The translations under genes and the position numbers were made by a program. 35,254 nucleotides of DNA from Eubacteriales bacterium (GTDB lineage Bacteria > Bacillota > Clostridia > Christensenellales > SZUA-584), in the NCBI GenBank assembly GCA_028711205.1, contig JAQTSP010000001.1, positions 1 to 35,254 on the forward strand. The letters run 5' to 3'. This document shows, in pieces, positions 1-32,894 of this stretch (positions are counted from its first letter, which is position 1; the number at the start of each line of letters is the position of its first letter). The notes under the pieces were generated by a model that saw nothing but the letters and a program-made list of their open reading frames with translations, was not told the origin of the DNA and made no database searches.

Positions 1-1836
1 CCTGTTGAGCGGATGCGCCATCGCGCCCACCCGCTTTCCCGCGGCATCTCTGGAGAGCTCGGTATCCGCGTCAAGCGTGATAACATATTTGATTCCCTGC
101 GGTATATCCTTTGTCACATGGGCAAACGGCGACTCGTCGCCATAAAGAAGCGCGCAGAAATCGAGCAGCGCGCCGCGTTTGCGCTCCCTGCCCGAATATT
201 TCCTTTTGCTTTTGATATATGTCCTTTTACGCTGCGCATAAAAGAAAATTTTCCTGTCGTATTTTTTGTTCAGGGTTTGGGTGAGCGCCTCTGTTTTTTC
301 AATTGTCTCCACGTCCTCGGCCGTGATCTCGTTTTTGTTTTCTTTAAAGTCTGATAAAAGCGCAAAATAAATGTTGTCCTGCTGATTGGCCGCATAGTAA
401 ACCTGCATTTTATCCAGCATGTCCTGCGCATCCTCTGCACATGTGATCAGTGTCGGTACGACCACCATCGTGGCGCAGTCTTTCGTGATGCCCTCACGAA
501 GCGCCATTTTCGGTATAAACGCCGGCCTGGTTAATAGCGCAAATATTTTGTTGCTGACCGCAATGGCCACGCTGTAAATCGGCACAAGGCTGATTAAAAA
601 TCCGAATATACCGTATATGACCGGATACATAAAAAACAAAGATATACAGAGTATCGCCGCGCTGATAACCGTCGAAACCATCGCGCCGCCCACATAAAAT
701 AAGAGCATATGCTTTTTAAAAAAAGAAATGGCCCTTTCTTTGGCGGGCAGCCTTCCGAATTCCTTCATCAGCGTATGCCGTTTTTGCCCGGCAACATAAC
801 TGCCCACATGCTCATCGTTTTTTTTCGCGAGTTTTATGGCCGTTTTGGCCACAGCCGTTTCCGACGCCTTGACGCTTTTGGCCATATCCGCGACACATCG
901 CCTGTAATATTCCCGCGAATCAAAATCCATATTTGTGTAATCTTCGTCCTCGCCTAAGTGTTTATGCACGACAGAAACGCTCTCAAATATTGACTCGAAG
1001 TTGATTTTTGCGAGCAATCTCAGCGACGAGATCGCACCCGAGATATACATGATATATTTGGCCTCATAGGCATGCGCTGTTTTTATCAGCTTATCGACAG
1101 ACAGGTCACGCATGCAGAGCCGGGCATTGATGGCTTCGGTGGCTCTTGCGGCATATGGGTTTTCTCTCAGCTGTGCCATGGCATGCTCTATAAACAACGG
1201 ATTGAAAAGAACATTCTTGTATTCGCCAAGCAGCTGGGCGGACACATCCTTGTCATTTTTTATCTGCGCGCAAAAACTATCCGCCCTGCTTCGCATGTAT
1301 ATGCATTCAACGCTGCGCCGTCCAAGCCCGGCCGCGGCGTACAAAAGCGCAGCTTTCAGCATATCGACAAATATCCAAAGCTCACCCGAATCAAGCCCTG
1401 CCTCTTTCTGGTACGCTTCTAGAAATTCCTGTATGCTGTTCTCGGTGATGTAAAATGAGCTGTGCTTGACGAGTTCTGTTGCAAGCACGAAGCCTCGCGG
1501 ATAATGCGCAAACCGGCCGTTTTTGATATGCGGCAGCTTATACGTGTTTTTATTGAGCTCGATCTGCTTAATTTGTTCGATAAACAAAAACCGGTTGTCA
1601 TAAAACCATTCGGAAATGGCGGGCAGGTCAGCGCCCTTGTCTTTTTTCTGTTTTGCCATATAATAGGCGTTTTCAATATTCCGCCGTACATCATAAAGAC
1701 TTAAATACCCATACTTGAATTTTTTTATATACACCTTGTGAATCAGCGACAAATCGCATGCGTACTTTAACAGCTCCCCGGAAGATAGTTTTAAGTCGTC
1801 TAATACATTCAGCGAAATGCTCCGTAACTTGCGCAT
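1..1836 (-). CDS. N-terminal 612 aa of a large cyclic beta-1,2-glucan synthase-like glycosyltransferase (NdvB/Cgs-type GT domain); the gene continues beyond the left window edge
   Basis: Absent from the ORF track because no stop lies in the window. Hand translation of the minus strand from ATG 1836-1834 (GGAGG 4 nt upstream) is open to position 1: MRKLRSISLNVLDDLKL... It shows hydrophobic TM segments (LLFYVGGAMVSTVISAAILCISLFFMYPVIYGIFGFLISLVPIY), then TMVVVPTLI, GRERKRGALLDF and a DxD motif, YVITLDADTEL. Confidence 0.6.
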   Translation of the reverse strand, partial: MRKLRSISLNVLDDLKLSSGELLKYACDLSLIHKVYIKKFKYGYLSLYDVRRNIENAYYMAKQKKDKGADLPAISEWFYDNRFLFIEQIKQIELNKNTYKLPHIKNGRFAHYPRGFVLATELVKHSSFYITENSIQEFLEAYQKEAGLDSGELWIFVDMLKAALLYAAAGLGRRSVECIYMRSRADSFCAQIKNDKDVSAQLLGEYKNVLFNPLFIEHAMAQLRENPYAARATEAINARLCMRDLSVDKLIKTAHAYEAKYIMYISGAISSLRLLAKINFESIFESVSVVHKHLGEDEDYTNMDFDSREYYRRCVADMAKSVKASETAVAKTAIKLAKKNDEHVGSYVAGQKRHTLMKEFGRLPAKERAISFFKKHMLLFYVGGAMVSTVISAAILCISLFFMYPVIYGIFGFLISLVPIYSVAIAVSNKIFALLTRPAFIPKMALREGITKDCATMVVVPTLITCAEDAQDMLDKMQVYYAANQQDNIYFALLSDFKENKNEITAEDVETIEKTEALTQTLNKKYDRKIFFYAQRKRTYIKSKRKYSGRERKRGALLDFCALLYGDESPFAHVTKDIPQGIKYVITLDADTELSRDAAGKRVGAMAHPLNR

Positions 1837-1894
1837 ATTTCCTCCATTTTTAAAATGTCATGTTACTATTATCTCGCATATAAGCGCTATAAAT

Positions 1895-1936: not shown

Positions 1937-1939
1937 TGG

Positions 1940-2283
1940 TTTTGAGACAGGCCTGTAAGCCGAGTTCTGTCGAAAACGGTCATCTATCTACGCCTATAGT
2001 TGCCTATAGGCTCCAGCGATTACATGGGGCGCGGCGGGCAGCCGCATCATGCCCACTATCAATCTTGCACCGGACGGGGTTTACATAGCAGCCAAGTCGC
2101 CAAGGCTCTGGTGAGCTCTTACCTCACCTTTCCACCCTTGCCTGACATACATCAGGCGGTATATCTCTGTTGCACTTTCCTTAGAGTCGCCTCCACCGGG
2201 CGTTACCCGGCGTCCTGCCCTACGGAGCTCGGACTTTCCTCCCGGCACATTTTGTACCGGGCGACCGTTCGGCCTTCTCAAAA
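1940..2283 (-). ncRNA. rnpB: RNase P RNA, bacterial type A
   Basis: The minus strand reads ...GCCGGGAGGAAAGTCCGAGC... (conserved GAGGAAAGUCCG), AGGGTGGAAAGGTGAGGTAAGAGCTCACC, ATGTAAACCCCGTCCGGTGCAAG and GTAGATAGATGACCGTTTTCGACAGAACTCGGCTTACAGG. All are close to the E. coli M1 RNA conserved regions. The P1 helix is TTTTGAGAAGGCC (2283-2271) paired with GGCCTGTCTCAAAA (1953-1940). There is no credible ORF. Confidence 0.88.
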
Positions 2284-14704: not shown

Positions 14705-16393
14705 TTATATTGTCGTTTTAAATTTTATTGCGGCGTCAAGCATCTCTTTTGCGTGCTGGTGTGTCACGCTTGAATCGCCGCCCGAGAGCCGCGCGATCTC
14801 GCTTATCCTGTCCTGTTCGCCGAGCGGGCTTAGATACGTCTGCGTCGTCGTTTCGTCGCTCTCTTTCAATACCAAAAAATGCTTATCCGCCATGCTCGCG
14901 ATCTGCGGCAGGTGCGTGACGCAAACGACCTGGCGGCCGCGCGATATGCTTTGCAGCTTTTGGGCGACGACCCCGGCCATCCGTCCGCTGATGCCTGTGT
15001 CGATCTCGTCAAATATCATCGTGGGGATGCCGCCTTTATCGGCCGCGATGTTTTTCAGCGCCAGCATGATACGCGACACTTCGCCGCCCGATACGATTTT
15101 TTTAAGCGGTTTTTGCGGCTCTCCCCTGTTTGTCGAAATATAAAACTCGACTGTGTCGATGCCGTTTTTTGAAAATGCGCATGTGTCGATGCCCGGTATA
15201 TCATCAAAATACACCGAAAAACTGGCGGTGGACATGCCAAGAGCATCAAGCTGCGCCATCACCTTTTGCTCAAACAGCATCGCCGCTTCTCTTCGCAAGT
15301 TCGATAAACCCACCGACTTCTCATACAATGCCGCTTTTGCCGTGCCTGCTTTTTCGTTTAGCTCATATAAAAGCCTTTCGCTGTCGATGAGGTCGGCAAG
15401 CGCCTGCTCGGCACTTTTGATAAAATCTCCCGTCGCGCGCGCGTCCTGATACTTTCTTTGGAGGCTGTGTATCAGCGCCAGTCTGTCCTCGATCTCCTCC
15501 AGTGTGCCCGCGTCAAAGCTGCACGTATCCATCTCATTTCTTATGCTCTCGGCGATCTCTTCGATCGCGTAGTACGCCTCGTCCACCCTGGATGCGATAT
15601 CCTCATACCTTTTGTCGACATGGGCAATGCTTATGAAGCGGCGGCTAATCTCTTTGAGCGACGCCAGCACGTTTGACGGTTCGGCTTCATACAGCAACGC
15701 ATATGCGGCGCTTGTTACATCCATAATCTGTTCCGCCGCATTCAGCCGCTTTTTCTGCGCCAAGAGCGCCTGCTCTTCGCCGTCGCCGATATTTGCCTGC
15801 CGTATTTCGTCTATCTGGAACTTCAGCACATCAATCTTGCGTTCGCGGTCGCCGTCGCCGCCAAACAGCGATCGAAGTCTTTTGTTGATCGCCGTATATC
15901 CGCCGTAAGCCGCTTCCACATCCGCCTTTGCCGCGCCAATGCGGCTGTCGAATCCGTCCAGCATGCCGATATGGTTTTTCTCGTTCAGCAGCGACTGGTG
16001 CTCATGCTGTCCGTGAATATCCACAAGCGCGTCGCTGATCGATTTTAAAACACCAAGCGTGACCAGCGCGCCGTTAACACGGCACACGTTCTTGCCTGTC
16101 ACGCTAAGTTCCCGTGACAGCACAAGATCGTTCTCCATTTCTATCTGCTGCTCGGCCAGTATATCGTTGACGCTTTGCTTCACATCGCAAAACCACGCCT
16201 CGACAACGGCTTTTTCCGCGCCCGTGCGTATCAGCTCTCTGTCTGCCCGCTCTCCCAGCACAAGATTGACAGAGTCGACGATGATGGATTTACCGGCGCC
16301 CGTCTCTCCTGAAAGCACGTTCATGCCGCCCGAAAAATCAACCTCCAGCTCTTTGATCAAAGCGATATTTTTAATAATTAATTTATTTAACAT
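14705..16393 (-). CDS. recN: DNA repair protein RecN
   Basis: 562-aa SMC-like ORF with Walker A GETGAGKS, a coiled-coil middle, and signature/Walker B at the C-terminus (SGGEVSRIMLALK, MIFDEIDTGISG). Confidence 0.95.
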   Translation of the reverse strand: MLNKLIIKNIALIKELEVDFSGGMNVLSGETGAGKSIIVDSVNLVLGERADRELIRTGAEKAVVEAWFCDVKQSVNDILAEQQIEMENDLVLSRELSVTGKNVCRVNGALVTLGVLKSISDALVDIHGQHEHQSLLNEKNHIGMLDGFDSRIGAAKADVEAAYGGYTAINKRLRSLFGGDGDRERKIDVLKFQIDEIRQANIGDGEEQALLAQKKRLNAAEQIMDVTSAAYALLYEAEPSNVLASLKEISRRFISIAHVDKRYEDIASRVDEAYYAIEEIAESIRNEMDTCSFDAGTLEEIEDRLALIHSLQRKYQDARATGDFIKSAEQALADLIDSERLLYELNEKAGTAKAALYEKSVGLSNLRREAAMLFEQKVMAQLDALGMSTASFSVYFDDIPGIDTCAFSKNGIDTVEFYISTNRGEPQKPLKKIVSGGEVSRIMLALKNIAADKGGIPTMIFDEIDTGISGRMAGVVAQKLQSISRGRQVVCVTHLPQIASMADKHFLVLKESDETTTQTYLSPLGEQDRISEIARLSGGDSSVTHQHAKEMLDAAIKFKTTI

Positions 16394-16424
16394 ATGATAG
16401 CGTTACCCGAAACAAAAAATGAGT

Positions 16425-16883
16425 TTATCTTTTTGAGCTTGACATCTTGCTGAGTTCATCGATGACGCGTTTTTGCATACCCTCTTCTCTGACCGCAACA
16501 AAGATCGTGTTGTCTCCGGCAATGGTTCCCGCGACATCATCCAGTTCGAGTTCGTCGATAGCCTCGGCCGCGGCGTTGGCACTGCCTGTCATCGTACGGA
16601 CCACGACCAGAGAAGCGGCCGGCTCGACTGAGATGACGGTGTCTCTGAAAACACGCTTGAACACATCCAGCTTACCCATCTGCTCTTTTCCGGACGCCGC
16701 ATATTTATACGTACCGTTTGCCGACTGCACTTTAACCAGCTTGAGCTCTTTGATATCACGTGATATCGTCGCCTGTGTCACTTCATAGCCTTTTTCTTTG
16801 AGTATGGCCGACAGCTCATCCTGCGTTTCCACATCGTACTTGTCGATCACTTCAAGTATTATTCCTTGCCTCCCCTGTTTCAT
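16425..16883 (-). CDS. argR: Arginine repressor
   Basis: 152-aa ORF with a winged-helix N-terminus (TQDELSAILKEKGYEVTQATISRDIKEL) and a C-terminal oligomerisation domain (GTIAGDNTIFV). Confidence 0.9.
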   Translation of the reverse strand: MKQGRQGIILEVIDKYDVETQDELSAILKEKGYEVTQATISRDIKELKLVKVQSANGTYKYAASGKEQMGKLDVFKRVFRDTVISVEPAASLVVVRTMTGSANAAAEAIDELELDDVAGTIAGDNTIFVAVREEGMQKRVIDELSKMSSSKR

Positions 16884-16902
16884 CCCATCACCCTCTTCTT
16901 AT

Positions 16903-17745
16903 TTATCTGTCCCAATTAATAAACTTCGACCTTAGCAAAGGATAAAAATAGTTCTCGTTAAACCGTATAAAACTCGCAAGATGCTCCGATCGTTTTATCT
17001 TAACGACTTCACCGTTATTAAGCTCTCTTTGCAGGATGCCGTCTGTCGTCAGCACCATACCACGAGGAGACGTCGGTTTGATCACAAGCTCTTCGTCGGG
17101 AGAGACCACAAGCGTTCTGGAATGCAGCGTATGCGGGCATATCGGCGTCGCCAGTATGCACTCAAGCTTCGGGCTGACGATCGGCCCGCCAGCGGAAAGA
17201 GAGTATCCCGTCGAACCCGTCGGCGTCGATGCCAGCATGCCGTCGCACGGCACATTGTCCGCGGCCGCCCCGTTGATGATAAGCTCAATATTGATCATGC
17301 GCGACATGTCTTTTTTCAGTACGGCCGCGTCGTTCAAAGCGTCGACACGATACACCGTGTTGTCACCGTCACACACACAGCAGCTGAGCATGAGCCGTTT
17401 CTCAAGATAATATCTGTCTCCCAATATGTTGTCGATCGCGTCCTCGACGCAGTGAAGCTCAACTTCCGTCAGAAAACCAAGGCGTCCCAGGTTGATGCCA
17501 AGCATGCTCACGCCATAAGCGCTTGCCATCGTCGCGGCTTTTAAGATCGTGCCGTCGCCGCCAAGAACAAAGAGGCAATCGACGCGCGCGCAGTCGGTCA
17601 CATCGGCTTCTCCGTCCGGCATCCCGTCCGCATCAAAAGACACCGCAATGCCCCTCTCTCTTAAATATTGCGCGACAAGCGCGGCGCCTTTTAAGCCGAT
17701 ATCCTTTTTTTTGTTGGAGAAAACCCCAGCTCTTTTAATTTCCAT
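16903..17745 (-). CDS. nadK: NAD kinase
   Basis: 280-aa ORF with the VLGGDGTILK motif, NDAAV and STPTGSTGYSLSAGGPIV. Confidence 0.9.
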   Translation of the reverse strand: MEIKRAGVFSNKKKDIGLKGAALVAQYLRERGIAVSFDADGMPDGEADVTDCARVDCLFVLGGDGTILKAATMASAYGVSMLGINLGRLGFLTEVELHCVEDAIDNILGDRYYLEKRLMLSCCVCDGDNTVYRVDALNDAAVLKKDMSRMINIELIINGAAADNVPCDGMLASTPTGSTGYSLSAGGPIVSPKLECILATPICPHTLHSRTLVVSPDEELVIKPTSPRGMVLTTDGILQRELNNGEVVKIKRSEHLASFIRFNENYFYPLLRSKFINWDR

Positions 17746-17753
17746 ATGCGCTC

Positions 17754-17782
17754 ATTATAATAAATTTTGGATAATTATACAA
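17754..17782 (-). promoter_or_regulatory. Candidate sigma-A promoter placed only 8 nt upstream of the nadK ATG
   Basis: Minus strand TTGTAT (17782-17777), 17 nt spacer, TATAAT (17759-17754). The ATG is at 17745-17743 with no SD in between. Confidence 0.4.
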
Positions 17783-17818
17783 CACGTATTCGGTTTTTTT
17801 ATTTGTTTTTCAATATGA

Positions 17819-18613
17819 TTATTTTGCGTTCTGGTGCGCGTCCTCCACCAGCTCCGCAATGTCGGTATGAACGCTATCCCCTTTGTCACAGAAATACGCC
17901 AGATATTCGATATTGCCCTCAGGGCCTTTTATCGGGCTGTATGTAAGGCCGCAGACGGCAAGGCCCAGGCCTTCTGCAAAATCAAGCACGCCCCGTATCA
18001 CCTCGGTATGCACAGCATTGTCCGACACGACGCCTTTTTTACCGACCTTGCCCCGTCCGGCCTCAAACTGCGGTTTGATGAGCGCAACGATGGCATACGG
18101 CCGTGTCAGCACACCGGTCAGCGCGGGCAGTATCAGCTTCAGCGATATGAACGATACGTCAATGCTGGCAAAGCTGATCTTTTTATCAAACATATCCGGC
18201 TTTAAGTAGCGCGCATTTTGCCGTTCCATCACGCGCACCCGGCTGTCCTGGCGCAAAGGCCACGCGAGCTGTCCGTGCCCCACGTCGACAGCGTACACAT
18301 ATGCCGAACCGTTTTGCAGCATACAGTCGGTAAACCCGCCTGTCGACGCACCAACATCGATCACGACTTTTCCGCTTATATCTATATCGAAAGTTTCAAT
18401 CGCTTTCTTTAATTTTCTGCCGCCGCGGCTGACAAACTCTTCGCCACGCTTCACGGTCACCTTTTGTCCGACGCCCACGGCGTACGCGGGCTTGTCGCAT
18501 CTTTGGCCGTCAACAAAAACAGCGCCCGCCATCACAAGCGCCTTTGCCCGCTCACGGCTTGCCGCAAGCCCGTTTTCAAAGAGGTATGTGTCAAGTCGCT
18601 TTTTGTCTGTCAT
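17819..18613 (-). CDS. tlyA: TlyA-family rRNA 2'-O-methyltransferase (hemolysin A-like)
   Basis: 264-aa ORF with an S4 domain (KRLDTYLFENGLAASRERAKALV) and an FtsJ-type SAM site (DVGASTGGFTD). Confidence 0.9.
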   Translation of the reverse strand: MTDKKRLDTYLFENGLAASRERAKALVMAGAVFVDGQRCDKPAYAVGVGQKVTVKRGEEFVSRGGRKLKKAIETFDIDISGKVVIDVGASTGGFTDCMLQNGSAYVYAVDVGHGQLAWPLRQDSRVRVMERQNARYLKPDMFDKKISFASIDVSFISLKLILPALTGVLTRPYAIVALIKPQFEAGRGKVGKKGVVSDNAVHTEVIRGVLDFAEGLGLAVCGLTYSPIKGPEGNIEYLAYFCDKGDSVHTDIAELVEDAHQNAK

Positions 18614-19190
18614 TATGTGCGCCTTTCCTGTCGACCCGAATAAAAAACATCAGCACATACGAAACGAAGCTGACGATCTCCTTGTTTTTCTTTAATGCGA
18701 TTGACTTGCCCGCGGCTTTTCCCGCGACCGTTAAAGACGCGATGATGCTCGAAATGACGATCGTCCATACCATTTCTCCCGATCCCGGGTCCATGATCGT
18801 CACCTTCAGCGCGATCGCCACACCGGCGGCACCGCTGACGATACCGCAAATATCGCCCACCACGTCGCCGCATATGTTGGATACGACACCCGCGTTTCTC
18901 AAAAGCACGATAGCGCTCTTTGCCTTTTTTATTTTTTTGGACGCCATCGATATAAAGGGCGCCGGGTCGCACGATGCAAAAGCGATACCGATGATATCAA
19001 ATGCAATGCCCAAAAGCACGATGAACAGTATAATAAAAGCAGCCGCAATGGCAGACAGATTGTCCATAAGCGACTCTGTCACCACGCTGATGACTGCTGT
19101 TAGAATAAGCGTGATAATAAATATCTTCAGCGCCCAATATCGTATTTTTTTTGATTTTTTATTTTTCAAAAGTTCTTTCTCACAAACCAC
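18591..19190 (-). CDS. oapA: Four-TM membrane protein, OapA-like (OLE-associated protein A candidate)
   Basis: 199-aa ORF with four predicted TM helices and a Lys-rich N-terminus. It lies immediately downstream of the large ncRNA and overlaps tlyA by 23 nt. The start is uncertain (GTG 19190 or TTG 19169). The assignment rests on topology, size and context only. Confidence 0.55.
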   Translation of the reverse strand: MVCEKELLKNKKSKKIRYWALKIFIITLILTAVISVVTESLMDNLSAIAAAFIILFIVLLGIAFDIIGIAFASCDPAPFISMASKKIKKAKSAIVLLRNAGVVSNICGDVVGDICGIVSGAAGVAIALKVTIMDPGSGEMVWTIVISSIIASLTVAGKAAGKSIALKKNKEIVSFVSYVLMFFIRVDRKGAHNDRQKAT

Positions 19191-19227
19191 CCAGGTGACG
19201 CTGTACGCCGCCGGGAACGCCGGAAAT

Positions 19228-19838
19228 AAAAAAACGGTGGTGATACCTTGGATAAACCTTGCAGCTTAGGTCCAGTAGGATTTCCCTTCAGAAGTACTCC
19301 CCGTCGCCGATGGAGCGGTTTCCCTTTAAACCCTGAAACGTGCCGTTGCCGCGCACGTGACTGGATTGCCGTTTAGACCACACTATAATCTCCAAAATAT
19401 CTCGGTGCGTTTTTTTCGGACGCACGCGTACAGTCTAGGAGTTTTCCTCGACAGCACAAAAACGGTTTCTAGCCTCTTTTGCCATGCGGGTTTTTTGCAG
19501 CGATCGTTCCCGGCGCTCGTGGCCTTTGCGCGCTGGGGCGTGTTCTGCAATACACCCCGAATAACTCAAGGCAGGCTACTCTGTACACAGCTTGTCGCCG
19601 CATGACAGGTTTCACCCCAAGTAGTAACCCGTATTATAGAATTACCTGCTTGGGTCTCCACGGAAGCGGGGTCTACGCCCGCATGCCATTGCGGATCGCC
19701 CCACGACCTTAACTTCCAGCATCAGCCCCCGACTGGGCGTCAGCGGCCAACACCAGAAACTTCATCGATGTGCCCTTAAGCGGATTTTTAGCCCCGCCTT
19801 CAAAACCGTAGTACCGACTAGAATACTGCACCACCTTT
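19228..19838 (-). ncRNA. ole: Large structured non-coding RNA, OLE-class candidate (~610 nt)
   Basis: There is no ORF of 60 aa or more on the minus strand across 19191-19939 in an otherwise compact locus. It has a dedicated consensus promoter and many perfect GC-rich hairpins (19666-19682, 19535-19558, 19405-19425, 19339-19357). A terminal helix GGUGGUG (19835-19829) / CACCACC (19242-19236) is followed by U7. The context oapA-like, tlyA, nadK, argR, recN matches the known ole neighbourhood. Confidence 0.65.
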
Positions 19839-19845
19839 GAACGCT

Positions 19846-19874
19846 ATTATACACTATGTGTGAACATTTATCAA
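19846..19874 (-). promoter_or_regulatory. Near-consensus sigma-A promoter driving the large ncRNA
   Basis: Minus strand TTGATA (19874-19869), 17 nt spacer, TATAAT (19851-19846). Confidence 0.6.
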
Positions 19875-19939
19875 TGATACTTCGATAAATCTTGCTCATT
19901 TTACAATTTATTCAAAAATAAGACGAAGTTTTTAATGAT

Positions 19940-20374
19940 TTATAAAGCTTCTGCAATAATTTCGTATGTCGTTGATACTTTCACGTTGTTTTTTATCATC
20001 GCCCAGACAGGGCAATAAGTCTCTTCAGCCATCGTCAGTACCTTTTTCAGATCTTCGTCCGTGACATCATCCGAAACAAGGCGGATATCAAGCGTAATGC
20101 TTTCAAAGCCTGTGGGATGCTGCTCCCGGCGGACGCCTTTCGCGCTAATCGTCAGCCCGGCAACATGTTTGCCCATCCTTCTTAAGAAAGGCGCGATCGA
20201 TCCGCCCGTGCACGACGCAAAGCTGATCAAAAACAACTGCAGCGGCATATAGCCCTTCCCCTCGCCCAGCGGCGGTATGTAATCAGTGATAACGGGCGGA
20301 AAATCACCGGCTTTGCCTTCAAACATCATCTTGTCGCCGATCAATTCCACCGAGGCTTCCAGAAAACCGCTCAT
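19940..20374 (-). CDS. OsmC/Ohr-family peroxiredoxin-like protein
   Basis: 144-aa ORF with the two conserved Cys contexts of the family (SFASCTGG and ETYCPVWAM). RBS GGAGGA upstream. Confidence 0.8.
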   Translation of the reverse strand: MSGFLEASVELIGDKMMFEGKAGDFPPVITDYIPPLGEGKGYMPLQLFLISFASCTGGSIAPFLRRMGKHVAGLTISAKGVRREQHPTGFESITLDIRLVSDDVTDEDLKKVLTMAEETYCPVWAMIKNNVKVSTTYEIIAEAL

Positions 20375-20415
20375 GTCTTATCCTCCATAATATCATTGTT
20401 TATTGTCAACATTTT

Positions 20416-21438
20416 TTAATCATCTTCATCGACCGTCTTGCTACGGCCGGCATTCAGTTTGTAGCCTGAGAGTATTTTCGCCTTCAGTTCCTCATAGACG
20501 TCCCTGTTTTCCTTCAAGAACAGCCTTGCGTTGTCTTTGCCCTGCCCGATACGCGTGTCGTTATAATAGAACCACGACCCGGATTTTTTGATCAGCCCGA
20601 GGTCTGTGCCAAGCGACAGTACGCTGCTTTCGGAAGAGATGCCCTCGCCGTAATAGATATCGAACTCCGCGGTCTTGAACGGTGGCGCGACCTTGTTCTT
20701 GGCCACCTTGATGCGCGTTCGGTTGCCGATCATGTCAGCCCCGTTCTTCAGCGTTTCGATGCGCCGGACGTCAAGCCGTATCGACGCATAGAATTTCAGC
20801 GCGCGCCCGCCAGGTGTCGTTTCCGGGCTGCCGAACATCACGCCGACCTTTTCCCTGAGCTGGTTGATAAAGACAGCCACCGTGTTCGATTTGCTGATAA
20901 TGCCCGCGAGCTTTGGGAGAGCCTGCGACATCAGCCTGGCCTGAAGCCCGACATGCGACGCGCCCATCTCGCCGTCGATCTCGGCTTTGGGCACAAGCGC
21001 CGCCACAGAGTCGATGATGATGATGTCGATTGCGCCGCTTCTCACCAGCGCTTCGGTGATCTCAAGCGCCTGTTCGCCTGTGTCCGGCTGCGAAACGTAC
21101 AGGTTGTCCGTATCAACACCCAGGTTTTTCGCGTACGCCGGGTCGAGCGCGTGCTCCGCGTCGACAAACGCCGCCGCGCCGCCAAGCTTTTGCGCCTCGG
21201 CCACCATATGCAGCGCCACCGTCGTCTTGCCTGACGACTCGGGGCCGTATATCTCAATAACGCGTCCCCGTGGCACGCCGCCCACGCCAAGCGCGATATC
21301 GAGCTCGAGGCACCCGCTCGGTATCACGGACACGGGCACGTTCGCCGCGTCTCCAAGCTTCATCACGCTGCCTTTGCCAAACTGCTTTGCTATCTGCAGA
21401 GGCGCCATCTCCAGCGCCTTTTGTTTCTCCATCGACAT
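20416..21438 (-). CDS. recA: Recombinase RecA
   Basis: Walker [19 protein letters not shown] and [21 protein letters not shown]. The preferred ATG at 21438 lies 8 nt after GGAGGA. The ORF track starts at TTG 21444. Confidence 0.97.
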
Positions 21439-21497
21439 CCCCAATTTCCTCCTGCTTTTAAAATAAATATATCATATCATCTGTCCCAAAAAAACCG

Positions 21498-32496: not shown

Positions 32497-32555
32497 ATTA
32501 AGCCAAATGTGAAAAAATAATAATACTTTTGCCAATTATGATTGAGGAGGACAAT

Positions 32556-32894
32556 ATGAGCGACAGAAAAAAACAGCTGGATGATTTTCTTTTTGGCCTT
32601 AAGGCGATGGGCCAGGAAGCGCCGGACGCCGTCAATGCCTTTATGGGCCTTTTAAAGGATGTCTATACGCCGGGTAAACTCGATTTAAAAACAAAGGAGC
32701 TGATCAGCGTCGCTATCGGCTGCTATAACAGGTGCAAATACTGCATCGTATACCACACAAACGAGGCGCTGAAGGCCGGTGCGACCAGAGAGGAGATCAT
32801 CGAAGCGGCGATGGTGTCCGTCGCGTTCGGCGGCGGCCCGTCGATGGCGTACTCCGTGACCGCATTAAAGGAAACGCTGGACGAGTTCGCATAA
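32556..32894 (+). CDS. Carboxymuconolactone decarboxylase / AhpD-like family protein
   Basis: 112 aa from ATG 32556 (GAGGAGG upstream). The CxxC motif in context GCYNRCKYCIVYH is typical of the CMD/AhpD family. Confidence 0.8.
   Translation: MSDRKKQLDDFLFGLKAMGQEAPDAVNAFMGLLKDVYTPGKLDLKTKELISVAIGCYNRCKYCIVYHTNEALKAGATREEIIEAAMVSVAFGGGPSMAYSVTALKETLDEFA

Follow-up and report, generated by a model that had tools for sequence, protein, structure and literature searches.

The window, that is, the whole 35,254-nucleotide stretch of DNA analysed here, holds on its minus strand a run of genes that is interrupted at 19191-19939 by a stretch without long open reading frames. An earlier note on this DNA had reported that no frame of 60 amino acids or more lies there on the gene-bearing strand, which is correct, the longest minus-strand frame being 55 aa; the other intergenic gaps in the window are about 215 nt or less, with the exception of the one occupied by RNase P RNA. 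The upstream neighbours (19940-21444, minus strand) are a gene for an OsmC-like protein (19940-20374) and recA (20416-21444), with pgsA, rimO and ftsK lying upstream of recA. On the downstream side stands a gene for a protein of 192 aa with a TTG start in the NCBI annotation (18591-19169, minus strand), treated below as oapA, followed by a block at 14705-18613 (minus strand) that consists of tlyA (17819-18613), nadK (16903-17745), argR (16425-16883) and recN (14705-16393), a continuation that the earlier note had described correctly; spoIVB and spo0A come after recN. Within the gap lies a gene for OLE RNA (19221-19850, minus strand, by the extent of its match to RF01071), the transcript of which is predicted to run from about 19838 to 19228 (~611 nt).

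OLE (ornate, large, extremophilic) RNA is a membrane-associated bacterial noncoding RNA of ~600 nt. It has been found in 2,822 GTDB genomes of Bacillota (Fernando and Breaker, PMC11332333). Screening the entire window against Rfam 15 with cmscan at gathering thresholds returned two matches, to OLE and to class A RNase P RNA. For OLE the match extends over 19221-19850 (minus strand), reaches 471.2 bits where the gathering threshold is 50 (E 2e-135), and covers model positions 1-616 of 616 without truncation. The covariance-model check that the earlier note had proposed for its probable OLE-class RNA is therefore clearly positive, and the class assignment is borne out over the full length of the model. 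Mapped onto the window, the Rfam structure has 139 of its 156 consensus base pairs canonical; many of the other 17 fall within J6/7 through P8, a region of OLE that has been described as variable (PMC12265935). The conserved blocks of primary sequence show no difference from the OLE consensus, and the predicted 611-nt transcript has a fold z-score of -3.46. In the cmscan alignment, neither the P7-P9 nor the P13 region of the model shows a large deletion, and the loop of the P13-type hairpin reads GCGA. Published OLE variants have P7-P9 shortened or missing, and in variant 1 the P13 site for OapB is often absent (PMC11332333). The RNA of the window is thus of the full-length type and neither variant 1 nor variant 2, because the entire model is spanned, including P7-P9 and P13.

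The other sizeable gene-free gap of the window is filled by a full-length class A RNase P RNA (1939-2280, minus strand; 289.1 bits against a gathering score of 100). The segment 1-1938 was considered as a second gene-free region and rejected, as a 619-aa ORF there runs off the contig end; this single open frame of 619 codons (1-1857, minus strand) specifies a large protein for which membrane segments are predicted. The window makes up one complete contig of a metagenome-assembled genome labelled 'Eubacteriales bacterium'. On its plus strand a single gene with Pfam support was found, a carboxymuconolactone-decarboxylase (CMD/AhpD-like) gene at 32529-32894. All remaining called genes of the 35-kb contig lie on the minus strand, and outside 32529-32894 the GC skew stays negative along the whole contig. 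Hosts of OLE are members of Bacillota and typically anaerobes or extremophiles. With spo0A, spoIVB and spoIIM present in the window, the host is consistent with a spore-forming member of Bacillota, and its taxonomy suggests that it is anaerobic.

The comparative material was obtained by scanning an OapA alignment over one genome per GTDB species, which gave 590 confirmed relatives; the comparison was then made on the best 80 loci. These 80 come mostly from Christensenellales and Christensenella, followed by Oscillospiraceae and thermophilic Clostridia, and the loci closest to the window among them likewise belong to Christensenellales and Christensenella. A search by nhmmer with the OLE of the window placed OLE directly 5' of the oapA homologue in 80/80 of these loci (the best 80 of 590), the match being partial where a contig end cut the upstream DNA, and cmscan of 12 diverse loci returned full-length OLE at 399-531 bits. 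The regions upstream of oapA in related Clostridia, which the earlier note had recommended for comparison, all contain OLE within this set.

Gene order around the RNA is similarly well preserved on the downstream side, where tlyA-nadK-argR-recN occur in the same order in nearly all related loci (best 80 of 590). On the upstream side, the order ftsK-rimO-pgsA-recA-OLE-oapA-tlyA, with neither ispA nor dxs, is found in at least 26 Christensenellales-like genomes (26/80; best 80 of 590 loci). The earlier note was right that ispA and dxs do not flank OLE here and that osmC-like and recA genes lie upstream, but the recA context is lineage-wide, at least 26 of the best 80 related loci having it. Because the recA-OLE-oapA-tlyA order recurs across relatives, the missing ispA and dxs are attributed to a rearrangement at the level of the lineage. 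Among the best 80 loci, the osmC-like (peroxiredoxin-family) gene between recA and OLE occurs only in the window and in the locus of its closest GTDB relative in the set (L001, 3786-4340). Of the other 25 recA-OLE loci, 24 have recA immediately before OLE, and one (L017) has a gap of ~1.2 kb.

At its upstream end the RNA is provided with a promoter of the sigma-70 type. The consensus scan located a -35 hexamer TTGATA (19869-19874, minus strand) and a -10 hexamer TATAAT (19846-19851, minus strand) separated by 17 nt, which together agree with 11/12 consensus positions; the site is exactly where it had been reported before (19874-19846, minus strand) and is positionally conserved in relatives. 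Promoter-like sites in the region number 5, against 2.0 +/- 1.7 in shuffles. Throughout the clade of the window a promoter-like site is present at the same offset, composed of TTGATA, TTGAAA or TTGTTA, a spacer of 17-18 nt and TATAAT, and the Oscillibacter loci have the form TTGCAT...TATACT. In most loci with a promoter of 9/12 or better, the -10 element ends 10-15 nt before a conserved GUGCAG. Transcription of OLE would start at about A19838, 8 nt downstream of the -10 hexamer. Between the osmC-like gene and this promoter there is no terminator-like site.

The earlier note had regarded such a dedicated promoter as a departure from the classical locus, which is not the case. The OLE of B. halodurans has a proximal promoter of its own, from which it is transcribed and which raised its expression >100-fold (Wallace et al. 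2012, PMC3413148), so that a dedicated promoter is the norm for OLE. The B. halodurans RNA is a single stable species that is also co-transcribed with its neighbours, and its mapped 5' ends lie close to where P1 begins (PMC3413148). In five loci from Christensenella and close relatives (L023, L027, L031, L033 and L058) no convincing sigma-70-type promoter is seen in the 75 nt upstream, the best sites agreeing at 6-7 of 12 positions, and OLE in these loci may be transcribed by read-through from recA or from another type of promoter. Three close relatives (L013, L014 and L039) have the promoter sequence of the window, TTGATA-17-TATAAT with similar flanks, but lack ftsK, rimO, pgsA and recA on the upstream side. 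Within the clade, ole-oapA and its promoter have therefore come to lie in at least two different upstream settings.

The conserved fold was assessed in a structure-blind MAFFT alignment of 55 full-length OLE homologues. In this alignment the Rfam consensus pairs are 87.7% canonical, compared to 40-48% in slid registers, and double-sided changes are found at 114 consensus pairs. The outermost helix of the RNA pairs GGUGGUG at the 5' end (19829-19835, minus strand) with CACCACC at the 3' end (19236-19242, minus strand), as the earlier note had proposed with the right coordinates. The bases concerned are left unpaired in the Rfam SS_cons of RF01071, but all 7 pairs are canonical in 53-55 of the 55 homologues (99% of alignment cells), and two of them switch from U-A to C-G (36/18 and 31/20 among homologues). 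The inner boundary is sharp, the next position being canonical in 0/54, and in other lineages the helix is extended outward with covarying sequence. It is also present in both the MFE and the centroid fold of the predicted transcript. In the literature, a P1 is named at the 5' end of OLE (Wallace et al. 2012, PMC3413148), and domain 2, formed by the 5' and 3' ends, comprises P1, P2 and P10-P15 (PMC12265935); since P1 is thereby placed at the 5' end and in the domain of both ends, the terminal helix probably corresponds to this published P1.

Since GGUGGU is a 3-nt repeat, P1 slid by +/-3 columns pairs highly too (88-98%), so that the evidence for its register comes from the abrupt inner boundary and from compensatory pairs, the slid-register control giving none. 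With the repeat reading GGU GGU G / C ACC ACC, slippage of the helix by 3 nt is conceivable. GGGUGG at ~19194-19200 was considered as an alternative partner of the 3' strand and rejected, as it is not conserved in relatives. Oscillibacter-type OLEs (L043, L046, L047, L049, L051, L053 and others) have GGCGGCG/CGCCGCC as P1, extended outward to ~14 bp (GCUAAGC.../...GCUUAGC), with no U-tract after it.

Inside P1, the Rfam alignment places P2 at 19779-19798 (minus strand), a hairpin GGCGGG / UCCGCU with the loop GCUAAAAA. The two published regions for OapA binding lie in or near P2 and P4a (PMC12265935). Four further hairpins had been proposed from their perfect complementarity, and although all the segments are where the earlier note had put them, only two belong to the real fold. 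The stem CGUGC/GCACG in the 3' domain (19339-19357, minus strand) has its four outer pairs in the Rfam consensus; these covary, with the fifth pair offset by one position, and the three outermost are canonical in 54-55 of 55 homologues with several pair types. The hairpin GUGCGU/ACGCAC (19405-19425, minus strand) is a lineage-specific extension inside a variable consensus stem-loop, the window having a 22-nt insertion where the RF01071 model has 6 nt, and among the 17-21 relatives bearing the insertion 13-18 have canonical pairs. The other two conflict with the conserved fold. The bases of GCGGG/CCCGC (19682-19666) are paired elsewhere by the covariation-supported consensus, and their proposed pairing is canonical in only 24-50 of 55 relatives. 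Similarly, the bases of GGGGUGU/ACACGCCCC (19558-19535) are paired elsewhere in the consensus, and no more than 25-39 of 53-54 relatives have canonical bases at its four outer pairs.

One base after P1 there is a U7 tract (19228-19234, minus strand), probably the 3' end of the RNA and a leaky terminator. That seven U residues follow P1 had been noted earlier, with a range (19235-19228) that is one base too long, 19235 being G. A U-tract abutting P1 occurs in 26/56 OLE loci, including all of the close clade of the window; it is not a general feature of OLE, because it is absent from 30/56 homologous loci, including Oscillibacter and Christensenella. The U-tract site was not called in a consensus terminator scan, and the helix beside it is a long-range one that spans ~590 nt, unusually far for an intrinsic terminator. 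The oapA gene begins ~58 nt beyond the U-tract, and as the consensus scan found no promoter-like site between the two, oapA and the genes downstream of it must be expressed by read-through.

The annotated product of oapA is a hypothetical protein of 192 aa, and an alternative GTG start at 19190 would lengthen it to 199 aa. The ORF has 2,597 homologues, and no Pfam or NCBIfam family matches it at default thresholds. A relaxed Pfam scan gave a weak resemblance to the CNNM domain PF01595 (E 0.0084; 16.2 bits, under the cut-off of 28.4), for which several homologues carry precomputed matches. Four hydrophobic segments (13-31, 38-56, 103-121 and 131-149) are predicted, and between the second and the third lies a basic loop, KKIKKAK...R (residues 78-91), which probably faces the cytoplasm; K78, K79, K81, K82, K84 and R91 are conserved in an alignment of 15 sequences. 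A DxxxD motif (DVVGD) occupies residues 102-106, with D102 and D106 invariant in 15/15 aligned sequences. An AF2 model built on the 15-sequence alignment is all-helical in secondary structure at a confidence too low for fold comparison (pLDDT 53, pTM 0.34), and a profile search of PDB sequences gave no match to any solved structure.

Four helices, a basic loop, DxxxD and a weak CNNM resemblance are the characteristics given for OapA in the literature (PMC11332333, PMC12265935), and DxxxD is distinctive, being absent from CNNM domains (PMC11332333); in the PM1 mutant of B. halodurans OapA this is the motif changed, as D100A/D104A (PMC9723947). On these sequence characteristics the ORF downstream of OLE is identified as an OapA homologue. 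The suggestion of the earlier note that a downstream gene with four transmembrane segments fits an ole locus has thus held, OLE being adjacent to the gene in related loci as well. The 3' end of oapA overlaps tlyA by 23 nt (18591-18613, minus strand), which points to translational coupling and to a transcript that oapA shares with tlyA-nadK-argR-recN.

Taken together, the region is almost certainly the ole gene of a Christensenellales-like member of Bacillota and encodes a full-length OLE RNA of ~610 nt. It is very improbable that the region is only a long, structured, cis-acting 5' leader of the oapA-tlyA-nadK-argR-recN mRNA with no separate functional RNA. Such a leader would agree with the ~58 nt from the U-tract to oapA, where the missing promoter-like site means that oapA is co-transcribed with OLE, and with the cluster of B. 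halodurans, which is likewise transcribed as a polycistronic RNA (PMC12265935). However, the sequence is that of a full-length OLE, and in the clade of the window the conserved P1 and U-tract mark a defined 3' end. Moreover, OLE of B. halodurans accumulates as one abundant and very stable species, its half-life being ~3 h (PMC3413148), and it binds proteins in trans.

The 17 non-canonical consensus pairs, and the absence of oapB and oapC from the contig, could also be taken as signs of a decaying, non-functional OLE relic, for which we see even less of a chance. Many of the mismatches lie within J6/7-P8, which is known to vary, and a contig of 35 kb is uninformative on unlinked genes, whereas the locus has kept its promoter, P1 and an oapA that is intact and includes the invariant motif, and the covariance score is within the range of OLE in cultured relatives and thermophiles (399-531 bits). 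The fallback of the earlier note, an unclassified and novel large structured RNA that resembles OLE only in size and context, is excluded for practical purposes by a covariance-model match ~420 bits over the gathering score across the entire model and by primary-sequence blocks that are the same as those of the OLE consensus.

As an ole gene, the locus can be given a tentative course of expression and function. Most OLE transcripts would end at the U7 after the 3' strand of P1, and read-through at this leaky 3' end would supply the oapA-tlyA-nadK-argR-recN message; the source of the read-through could be the ole promoter, or recA and the osmC-like gene upstream. By analogy with Halalkalibacterium (Bacillus) halodurans and clostridial OLE, the RNA would be abundant, stable and able to dimerise. 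It would be bound, cooperatively, by the four-helix, CNNM-like OapA, for which DxxxD is essential, and thereby be held at or in the cell membrane. OLE, OapA, OapB and OapC would form a ribonucleoprotein, the last two proteins being encoded elsewhere; neither oapB nor oapC is in the 35-kb contig. OapB is a protein of ~100 aa that binds OLE, and OapC (YbxF) belongs to the L7Ae family; a host of full-length OLE would be expected to have both genes and to lack mpfA. On the same analogy, the particle would aid the cell under stress from short-chain alcohols, cold or excess Mg2+ and on poor carbon sources, and it may control divalent-ion transport through OapA.

It is conceivable, though on balance doubtful, that in the Christensenellales-like lineage P1 and U7 together form an intrinsic terminator or attenuator of long range, the loop of which would be ~590 nt. 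If so, the ratio of free OLE to oapA-tlyA-nadK-argR-recN read-through would depend on closure of the global OLE fold, and Oscillibacter, with its 14-bp P1, and Christensenella, both without a U-tract, would set their 3' ends otherwise.

The main outcome is that the annotation of the window is settled, in that the one large gene-free stretch apart from that of RNase P RNA is a textbook OLE with its partner gene and no new RNA. As the OLE class, its partner protein, the promoter and P1 have all been described before, this instance is an ordinary one and the gain for OLE biology is small. What the comparison does add is that the U-tract abutting P1 is specific to a lineage, and that a whole Christensenellales-like clade has moved ole-oapA beside recA and lost the ispA and dxs neighbours, while keeping the proximal promoter, P1 and the tlyA-nadK-argR-recN block.

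Among known systems, the closest counterpart is the OLE of Halalkalibacterium (Bacillus) halodurans C-125, which belongs to the same RF01071 family, is likewise full-length from P1 to P15, and also has its own proximal promoter with oapA immediately downstream, followed by tlyA, argR and recN. Even the DxxxD motif occupies nearly the same residues, at 100/104 in OapA of B. halodurans and 102/106 in that of the window. In contrast to B. halodurans, the window has no ispA upstream and no dxs between oapA and tlyA, with recA and an osmC-like gene upstream instead, and its OLE carries the lineage-specific 22-nt hairpin extension at 19405-19425. The loci of Caloranaerobacter azorensis (L055) and of a member of Oscillospiraceae (L043) resemble the window in having OLE-oapA and then tlyA-(nadK)-argR-recN. 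They differ from it in that the former shows the classical order folD-xseA-ispA-OLE-oapA-dxs-tlyA, and the latter has kept dxs and has other upstream genes.

For the partner protein, the transmembrane domain bears a weak likeness to the Mg2+ transporters MpfA, CorB and CNNM, as has been published for OapA (PMC11332333). Unlike these transporters, OapA of the window has no CBS or CorC domains and has the OapA-specific DxxxD. For the RNA, the conserved OLE core nucleotides are common to the window and to OLE variants 1 and 2. The OLE RNAs of Clostridium acetobutylicum and C. botulinum, for which cryo-EM structures of homodimers are available, are of the same family and come from the same class, Clostridia, as the window. 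The consensus structure that the window's OLE has in common with them suggests, by analogy, the same organisation into domain 1 and domain 2, and membership of the family would lead one to expect that it dimerises as they do.
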